DNA from: Escherichia phage ECO95 1-6-1
Sequence record: OR845796.1
Strand: one strand, 5' to 3'
Length of the DNA: 1,614 nt
Made by a program: the position numbers and the translations under genes. Position 1 is the first letter of the stretch. Every line of letters starts with the position of its first letter. Of this stretch, positions 579 through 1,582 are shown one piece after another. The notes under the pieces are model-generated. The model was not told the origin of the DNA. It did no database searches and saw only the letters and a list, made by a program, of their open reading frames with translations.

Positions 579-1038
579 TCTGCTCTCCGGGGAAATAATG
601 CCATTCGTTCAGATTGGCGAAACTGTTTCCACTGCCAGTTGGCATACGTGACGGGTAAGTAGCTCTTTTTGCTCTGGCGATGGCGGTCTGCTTATAGAGA
701 AGCTCCTTCCCATATTTAGCGGTTGCGATAATTTTGGCGGTAGCCTCAAGCGCATAATCCGGCGCAATTCTGCAGGCCAGATTGTGGAATACTGCGCTGA
801 CTGCACTGGAGCGAAGGCCGTGGTCGTCACCTTCAGCGGGAGGATTATCATCACCTGAGAATGCATAGCCGGTGATGATGCCCTTTCCGTCCTGATACCA
901 TTCGGCCATCATCGCTTCGAGGTCATCTACGGCATCCTGCATAGACTGTGGCTCAACATCAGTGAGAGTTGCATCTGATGCTACACCAAGCTTACGCAGC
1001 GCCGCCCTGACCAGATCGCCTTTAGTCTTTATCTGCAT
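538..1038 (-). CDS. 4: Head-completion / tail accessory factor, P22 gp4 homologue (166 aa); virion-associated peptidoglycan hydrolase.
   Basis: Complete 166-aa ORF in the track, beginning [53 protein letters not shown]. Length and sequence agree with P22 gp4 as I recall it, and it sits immediately upstream of the gp10 homologue as in P22. Its start overlaps the upstream ORF by 17 nt and its 3' end overlaps the gp10 start by 41 nt, out of frame. Confidence 0.9.
583..588 (-). promoter_or_regulatory. Ribosome-binding site (GGAGAG) for the gp10 homologue, lying inside the 3' end of the gp4 coding sequence.
   Basis: Minus-strand sequence reads GGAGAG-CAGA-ATG, a canonical Shine-Dalgarno core with appropriate spacing. 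Confidence 0.6.
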
Positions 1039-1582
1039 CGCTTTCCGCCTTAGGCTTTGGTCCTGGCTTTTTGCGTTCTTTGGTTGCCGGTTCTTTCGGT
1101 CGCAGGCTTAGCAGACGATTCAACACATCATCTGCCGTGTGGCCGTCCCATTCCTTGCCAAACTCAATTTCCGTGCCTTTAGGCAGATGTTCAATTTCAC
1201 TCTCTGGGAGGTGGTATGTTACCGCGCCTTCTGGGGTGTCGATGCCAGCTAACACCCATCCATCCCATTGCTCGCCGTCATGATGCTGGAAGCTCCACCA
1301 TGCGCTTTCGCGGAAGGCATTCATTAGTGTTGAAAACAGGCGCACTCGATGTGCATATAGTTCGTTAAAGGTGTGGTATCCATCAGATACTTCACCCATG
1401 TCTTTCTTGACCACGCCTGAATCGCCGATTGGCTCGTCATTAGTCTCCGGCACCTCATTTGGATGCTTAACCCAACCATCGGCAAGGTGATCTTCTACGT
1501 CGCCGTCATCGACAACTTTAGCCTGAACTTCCTTGCCCCATACCTTCGTTCCACGACCCTGCTTATATAGCATTACGCCCAT
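1022..1582 (-). CDS. Hypothetical protein, 186 aa, acidic and Trp-rich with a basic Lys/Pro-rich C-terminal tail; function unknown.
   Basis: Complete ORF with ATG at 1582..1580 preceded by a strong Shine-Dalgarno (GAGGTG-ACAT-ATG). Co-directional with gp4 and gp10, and its TAA stop at 1024..1022 overlaps the gp4 start by 17 nt. By my count it has 37 Asp+Glu against 23 Lys+Arg, and about 7 Trp. I recognise no family with confidence. Confidence 0.75.

Follow-up and report, generated by a model that had tools for sequence, protein, structure and literature searches.

A 1,614-nucleotide stretch of Escherichia phage ECO95 1-6-1 (sequence record OR845796.1, called the window at its full length) carries on its minus strand an open reading frame (ORF) of 186 codons whose closest described counterparts are gene 6 of phage epsilon34, Orf-186 of ST64T, ORF54 of ST104 and gp06 of BTP1 (STMMW_03821). 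The epsilon34 genome paper of 2008 discussed gene 6 as a gene whose homologues vary in length and whose role was unknown, described "substantial internal deletions" in the P22 and Scho1 versions, and gave the P22 homologue as non-essential; gels of epsilon34 virions differ from those of P22 solely in gp13, the tailspike and Dec, with no extra band of ~21 kDa (PMC2629481). A second set of described systems touches the same gene through one of its domains. Experiments have established Tad2, Sequestin and Acb2 as sponges of the second messengers of Thoeris and of the cyclic oligonucleotide-based anti-phage signalling system (CBASS), and the sponge families recognised as of April 2026 are Tad1, Tad2, Acb2, Acb4, Sequestin, Lockin and TadIV-1. 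According to Tal et al. 2025 (10.1101/2025.07.12.664507), sponges routinely occur as fusions with other sponge domains, and Sequestin itself came to light in a search for uncharacterised domains attached to Tad2 and Acb4. We find that the product of the ORF contains a WDGH domain, a phage module that elsewhere joins such sponges, and we suggest, tentatively and from these associations, that the module may counter nucleotide-based immune signalling by binding or cleaving an alarm nucleotide.

The ORF product shares 96.8–98.4% amino acid identity with the epsilon34, ST64T, ST104 and BTP1 proteins, and these orthologues, together with SE1 orf56, are likewise 186 amino acids long, occupy the same slot and overlap gp4 in the same way; they show no substantive difference and are all annotated as hypothetical. 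Salmonella phage S.Kent 1-2-1 matches the window at 100% identity, and many P22-like phages do so at ~94%. A preliminary description of the window, written from the letters alone, had been unable to place the protein in any family and had proposed profile and fold searches. The profile half of that proposal overturned the claim. Residues 63–160 match positions 1–97 of the 97 in the Pfam profile PF25311, "WDGH domain" (E=1.7e-40, 137.6 bits against a cut-off of 27 bits); the full length matches PHROG 3769 (positions 1–186 of 186, E=6e-125), with an identical order of coat gene, ORF and gp4 in BTP1, epsilon34, ST104 and ST64T; and residues 1–53 match PHROG 1175 (E=2.9e-17), so that the ORF is an expanded member of the orf69-like group with an extra domain. 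PF25311 was the sole Pfam family found in the protein at E≤1, a search in which the sponge families PF11195, PF21825, PF24729 and PF13876 did not appear; CT021 (Pfam, E 0.03) was rejected as below threshold. The families matched in PHROGs are all labelled "unknown function", and a search of NCBIfam with the protein returned nothing. The preliminary description had also tied the novelty of the gene to whether a characterised family would be matched: only part of that novelty falls away, because the matched family is named yet uncharacterised. The gene itself had already been discussed in 2008 (PMC2629481). The gene is not new, having been annotated since 2002–2008 and having Pfam and PHROG entries. 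The contribution of the present analysis is the chimeric architecture, with WDGH inserted into an orf69-like slot gene, and the long/short allele polymorphism, together with the lack of a fold relative and the recurrent fusion or adjacency to Thoeris and CBASS sponges.

The ORF protein is a chimera of an orf69-like N-domain, the WDGH module and a basic tail. An AlphaFold2 model of it has a mean predicted local distance difference test score (pLDDT) of 79, with values of 82–96 per 10-residue block across residues 71–160. The ORF and its segments, with the evidence for each, are as follows.

1022..1582, minus strand: the 186-amino-acid ORF, with ATG at 1582–1580 and TAA at 1024–1022 (orthologues, PHROG 3769, purifying selection)
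1448..1582, minus strand: N-terminal orf69-like domain, residues 1–45 (PHROG 1175, alignment with P22 orf69, model, N-domain profile search)
1397..1447, minus strand: acidic linker, residues 46–62 (poorly conserved, predicted disordered; pLDDT <50 at 49–59)
1103..1396, minus strand: WDGH domain, residues 63–160 (PF25311, pLDDT, near-invariant residues)
1025..1102, minus strand: basic Pro/Lys-rich C-terminal tail, residues 161–186, isoelectric point (pI) 9.6 (composition; predicted disordered)

The modelled N-domain is a beta-hairpin and a helix (strands 2–14 and 17–25, helix 26–34) and carries the motif YKxG…WG…KVV…L.DGW..HP, and the WDGH domain is predicted to adopt a compact alpha-beta3-alpha-alpha fold. 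The tail has in common with P22 orf69 the motif KPKAxSDADKD, and its last codons carry the ribosome-binding site and start of gp4. The whole product is of 21.0 kDa with a pI of 5.0 and includes an overall acidic WDGH domain (pI 4.7). A recount reproduced the ORF, the residue counts and the quoted peptides of the preliminary description: there are 37 Asp/Glu, 23 Lys/Arg and 7 Trp, including WW (95–96) and WDGW (106–109), together with 9 His.

The ORF is a genuine coding gene under purifying selection. Its ratio of nonsynonymous to synonymous substitution rates (dN/dS) against the BTP1 orthologue is 0.22. Against an E. coli prophage orthologue with 61% amino acid identity, the proportion of nonsynonymous differences (pN) is 0.23 and that of synonymous differences (pS) 0.87, at which synonymous sites are saturated. 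In the same comparison pN is 0.17 in the WDGH domain and 0.29 in the N-domain, where pS is 0.90, and it is highest in linker residues 46–62 (0.48), which also contain indels. Across the tail codons 161–186 (window 1025–1102) pS falls to 0.62 from ~0.9 elsewhere, as expected of a stretch that also carries the gp4 ribosome-binding site and start.

The signature motifs of the WDGH family, SDGYHTF.ELY.HR..LF, WWS..H.DG (W.S..H.DG), TYH and WDGH, are all present in the ORF protein, and the segment that had been singled out from the letters as a "conserved core" proved to be the best-conserved motif of the family. Conservation of motifs at the level of at least 90% was judged in alignments of 51, 146 and 32 sequences. 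The domain is unusually well conserved: across 146 clusters, about 28 of its 97 positions reach at least 90% identity, among them S66, D67, H70, T71, Y76, R79, S97, H100 and D102 in the first part and T122, Y123, H124, D146, H148 and R156 in the second; the polar set conserved at this level comprises 4 His, 3 Asp, 2 Arg and 2 Tyr. With other members of PF25311, such as gp21 of Listeria phage A511, gp128 of P100, gp61 of Klebsiella phage LASTA and the Lactococcus P092/1706 proteins, the ORF product shares a high-scoring match over the full domain and all signature motifs; those members differ from it in their N- and C-terminal partners and in their genomic positions.

Structural comparison, the other half of the searches that had been proposed, gave no counterpart for this domain. 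A phmmer search of PDB sequences with the ORF protein gave 0 matches, and Foldseek comparison of the model with the PDB, including the solved sponge structures, found no relative at E≤1e-3. When the family profile was run against the PDB, a designed coiled coil (E 0.03) and H-NOX (E 0.2) were rejected as being at chance level, and a fold search of BFVD recovered only other WDGH or uncharacterised proteins. Judged from the model, WDGH apparently represents a new fold.

WDGH is a mobile phage module. The family comprises 3,646 clusters at 50% identity (E≤1e-3), almost all of them from phages and prophages: Listeria phages A511 and P100, Bacillus phages Tsamsa, BCP78 and Kirov, pneumococcal (Streptococcus) and lactococcal phages, Klebsiella and Erwinia phages, cyanophages and one crAss-like phage. 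It spans myo-, sipho- and podoviruses without a conserved genomic position, and lies outside structural modules, in an early small-gene block in A511 and in accessory or early small-gene blocks in LASTA and Kirov; elsewhere it is found between the portal and minor capsid genes (pneumococcal phages) or after the lysis cassette (a Serratia prophage). In most members the domain is flanked by additional N- or C-terminal segments (median N-extension 58 amino acids). These are extremely diverse, with 323 extensions falling into 159 clusters. Two members, P0150 and P0208, have two tandem WDGH domains each. Many enterobacterial phage proteins, including P0064, P0090, P0102, P0112 and about 20 others, carry C-terminal to WDGH a module of ~65 amino acids, "v(Y/F)QYaAs.N..RG.v..DG…Y…RA.IA.D…V.V..L..G", that has no Pfam match.

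The partners of WDGH that can be recognised among 146 representatives are Sequestin (PF21825) in seven, a Tad2-like domain (PF11195) in one, an Acb2/Tad1 hairpin in one and Lar in one, with a few domains of unknown function besides. At least three architectures join WDGH to Sequestin, namely X-WDGH-Sequestin (P0082, P0130, P0153), Tad2-WDGH-Sequestin (P0085) and Sequestin-WDGH (P0138), and the genes of the last two kinds are located inside late or morphogenesis modules. Sponges and WDGH are alike in being small, phage-restricted mobile modules that are fused together and found in accessory islands, with WDGH fused or adjacent to three sponge families; WDGH is unlike the sponges in having no sequence or fold similarity to them, in being far more conserved and rich in invariant His and Asp, and in being acidic overall. 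Identity with Lockin or Acb5 was considered and rejected, as the descriptions in Tal et al. set both apart. A conserved His/Arg pattern near phosphate-binding positions, of the kind seen in Acb5 (R10, H61, W38), would fit the conservation of WDGH, whereas Acb5 is concentrated in actinophages and WDGH occurs mostly in phages that infect Firmicutes or Enterobacterales. Searches of Pfam, NCBIfam and the PDB matched WDGH to none of Acb1, Apyc1, AcrIII-1 and Acb5, in sequence or in fold; WDGH lacks a metallo-beta-lactamase motif, and inspection of the alignment revealed no paired HxT/S motif of the 2H type.

Several neighbourhoods of WDGH genes were also noted. A Tad2-like gene of 297 amino acids (L014 4057–4950) lies directly upstream of the WDGH-Sequestin gene P0082 (5001–5786), on a contig that resembles a temperate phage and also encodes an integrase and a Mu Gp12-like protein. 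In Klebsiella phage LASTA, gp63 (L009 5925–6260), annotated as hypothetical, contains an Acb2/Tad1 hairpin (E=1.3e-17) and stands two genes downstream of the WDGH gene gp61; the sequences suggest that the gp61–gp63 region may be an unannotated anti-defence island. In Bacillus phage Kirov (gp169–gp170, L010 2845–3913) the WDGH gene is followed after a 4-nt gap by a gene of the NADAR family (ADP-ribose-processing). On contig L013 the Sequestin-WDGH gene is downstream of the terminase small-subunit gene and upstream of the portal gene, and the gene for a 65-amino-acid CsrA homologue (PF02599; 9763–9960) closely precedes that for the major capsid protein.

How the module might act can be sketched as follows. 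The ORF product is an accessory protein of three pieces, probably non-structural and dispensable. Its gene is transcribed with the late operon, past the stem-loop downstream of the coat gene, and translated from its own strong ribosome-binding site, with terminating ribosomes passed on to gp4. This much of the anatomy is shown; the function is a proposal. The WDGH domain would bind, or more likely hydrolyse, an alarm nucleotide of the Thoeris or CBASS type; cleavage is somewhat likelier than pure sequestration because the putative site is rich in His, Asp and Arg and highly conserved. In the model, the loops SDGYHT and WDGHT (DG(x)HT) directly precede helices 72–89 and 150–158. Loops at the N-termini of helices often bind phosphate groups, and from this position we infer that the two loops, with the near-invariant His, Asp, Arg and Tyr residues, may form a phosphate- or nucleotide-binding or catalytic pocket. 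Tail-fibre and capsid-vertex proteins have been reported as triggers or escape loci of Thoeris, and co-production with coat and tail proteins would place the protein in the cell as the late structural proteins trigger the sensors.

Several points weigh against an anti-signalling role. The argument, drawn from gene and domain associations, is one of guilt by association, and only ~10 of the 146 WDGH representatives (~7%) have a recognisable anti-defence partner, most partners being unknown. The ORF protein has no sponge fusion and is joined instead to a slot-specific small domain in a morphogenesis operon. Most characterised sponges are early proteins, whereas this one is made late; the late-operon location is not strongly contrary, however, because fused sponge-WDGH genes also occur in late modules and structural proteins are reported to trigger Thoeris. 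The domain is acidic, whereas it was positively charged pockets that led to the known sponges. The fold searches gave no relative that supports any chemistry, PADLOC returned no match at E≤1 for the ORF protein or for 32 WDGH family members, and a literature search for WDGH, PF25311 and STMMW_03821 produced no relevant paper, no searchable paper naming the domain.

The strongest competing explanation, which we nevertheless regard as unlikely, is that WDGH serves, as an enzyme or a binding module, a different host-takeover task, such as nucleotide, NAD or ADP-ribose metabolism, the reversal of ADP-ribosylation, or anti-restriction. The conservation of His, Asp and Arg does look enzymatic, the Kirov gene directly precedes a NADAR-family gene, and one WDGH protein is fused to Lar, a restriction-alleviation protein, with most other partners being unknown. 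Nevertheless, the partners that can be recognised are mainly signal sponges, and WDGH resembles no known metabolic enzyme in fold or in family.

The next explanation concerns the slot in which the ORF lies, and the alleles found there bear on it. The preliminary description had supposed that the position between the coat gene and gp4 is a variable slot and had proposed a comparison across P22-like phages. In the phage collection, 58 records, including P22, have the short form (orf69, with no WDGH domain) and ~41 the long one, and E. coli prophages with the long form have it in the same coat-to-gp4 slot. P22 orf69 (69 amino acids) aligns with the N-domain and the last 11 residues of the ORF protein and lacks the entire WDGH domain. 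The P22 orf69-like proteins thus share with the ORF the N-domain (36–43% identity), the tail, the position after the coat-gene stem-loop and the overlap with gp4, and differ in having no WDGH domain and a length of 65–78 amino acids. A profile search with the N-domain found 259 proteins, nearly all of them stand-alone proteins of 65–78 amino acids from Enterobacterales prophages, and the two of these that were looked up both lie between a P22-type coat gene and gp4; a search with the single N-domain sequence gave 8 matches, all near-identical. The slot does vary among P22-like phages, then, but it is not freely variable, since the small orf69-like gene is constant and WDGH is an optional insert between N-domain and tail. 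A recent deletion in P22 was rejected as the origin of the short form: the N-domains of long and short alleles are 36–43% identical, whereas the flanking virion genes are >90% identical, and the two forms are therefore old alleles exchanged by recombination. A literature search for P22 orf69 found nothing relevant.

Against BTP1 (window 1–1614, L001 4001–5611) the DNA identity is 98.4% in the ORF, 93.5% in gp4 and 89.4% in the gp10 part. This mosaic divergence suggests a recombination boundary, which may lie near the junction of the ORF and gp4. In Sf6, gene 6 (61 amino acids, L015 1686–1871) lies between the coat terminator and the gp4 homologue and has a similar basic-acidic tail; hhalign comparison with the orf69-like domain was not significant (probability 0.5%, E 0.13).

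That the ORF product is a helper of head completion or assembly, or a minor virion or ejected protein, is improbable in the light of these alleles. The position within the morphogenesis operon, which is fixed across P22-like prophages of Salmonella, E. coli, Serratia and others, the overlap with gp4 and the purifying selection on the orf69-like N-domain (pN and pS as above) would all suit such a role, but it could apply at most to the N-domain, as WDGH is missing from P22 and 57 further records whose virion genes are otherwise >90% identical, and the domain is found in myo-, sipho- and podoviruses outside the structural modules. The non-essential P22 homologue and the gels, in which epsilon34 departs from P22 in gp13, tailspike and Dec alone, point the same way (PMC2629481). 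Because P22 and the 57 records do without WDGH, the P22 homologue is non-essential and no extra epsilon34 band is seen, the ORF product is best regarded as dispensable and absent from the virion. Among the roles offered in the preliminary description, which were assembly factor, unrecognised virion or ejected protein, and accessory gene, the last fits best, and the others are disfavoured by P22, whose virions are normal although it lacks the domain, by the epsilon34 gels and by the distribution of WDGH.

Very improbable, finally, is a WDGH domain with no ligand of its own, acting instead to oligomerise or scaffold neighbouring sponges or to shield them from sponge-sensing decoy systems such as Panoptes, and being a passenger in the P22-like protein: WDGH does lie between Tad2 and Sequestin in P0085, sponges act as dimers to hexamers and sponge activity can trigger Panoptes, but 137 of the 146 representatives have no recognisable sponge domain, the 28 near-invariant positions, many of them polar His and Asp, are atypical of a scaffold, and the sponge-less P22-like protein is under strong purifying selection.

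The anti-signalling role that we favour can be taken further, to a form that we consider doubtful. WDGH would then be the founding domain of a structurally new and widespread family of inhibitors, most likely an enzyme that destroys a messenger derived from Toll/interleukin-1 receptor (TIR) or cGAS/DncV-like nucleotidyltransferase (CD-NTase) proteins, and the long and short alleles would give prophages of Salmonella and E. coli a natural on/off polymorphism in immune evasion; having been spliced into a small gene of the head module, the domain would be made alongside the structural proteins that trigger the sensors. An anti-signalling role, if true, would add a structurally unrelated family to the few known sponges and signal-cleaving enzymes. 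The family exceeds several of them in size, with 3,646 WDGH clusters to set against 907 Lockin and 1,480 Acb5 homologues (IMG/VR), counts that are not directly comparable. WDGH is present in model and biocontrol phages (epsilon34, L, ST64T, BTP1, Listeria A511/P100 and Bacillus Tsamsa), and the long and short alleles in near-identical P22-like phages constitute a ready isogenic test system in Salmonella. The pattern of fusions and neighbourhoods extends the fusion-to-sponge logic of Tal et al. 2025. If the anti-signalling interpretation is wrong, WDGH nonetheless forms a large and highly conserved family, apparently with a new fold, whose structure and function merit study.

The surroundings of the ORF agree with the preliminary description, which had read it as a late-operon gene with its own ribosome-binding site and coupling to gp4, flanked by P22 gp4 and gp10 homologues. 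On the minus strand of the window the order is the end of a stem-loop with its T-run, a Shine–Dalgarno sequence, the 186-codon ORF, gp4 and the start of gp10.

1593..1614, minus strand: 3' half of the stem-loop after the coat gene (…GGCTTAGGCCCC) and T-run; GC-rich, with the 5' half outside the window
1587..1592, minus strand: Shine–Dalgarno sequence GAGGTG, 4 nt 5' of the ORF ATG, identified from the sequence
1022..1038, minus strand: overlap of the ORF end and the gp4 start (ATGCAGATAAAGACTAA), 17 nt, with the gp4 ATG at 1038–1036
538..1038, minus strand: gp4 (head-tail adaptor / tail accessory factor), 166 amino acids (PF11650, E=1.1e-74; PHROG 637)
1..578, minus strand: gp10 (head closure), first 192 codons, starting 41 nt inside gp4 (translation and annotation of matching records)

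The orthologous locus of BTP1 contains the complete stem-loop, AGGGGC-TTCG-GCCCCT, with a T-run (L001 3998–4013), and a stem_loop or terminator is annotated at the matching site in the P22, Sf6, Emek and g341c records. The BTP1 stretch from the coat gene to the ORF showed no sigma-70-like site, and a moron with its own promoter, expressed in lysogens, was rejected on this ground. An Rfam search of the window for RNA elements gave no match at E≤1. An SD-like (Shine–Dalgarno-like) sequence for gp4, AAGGCGG, lies inside the ORF at 1051–1045 (minus strand), and the overlap of the ORF with gp4 is likewise annotated in BTP1, P22 and E. coli prophages. The annotated start of gp10 is inconsistent between records: the ATG at 578, which gives a 41-nt overlap with gp4 (window 538–578, minus strand), matches the P22 record BK000583, and the BTP1 RefSeq gp10 begins at a later ATG, with an 8-nt overlap with gp4.

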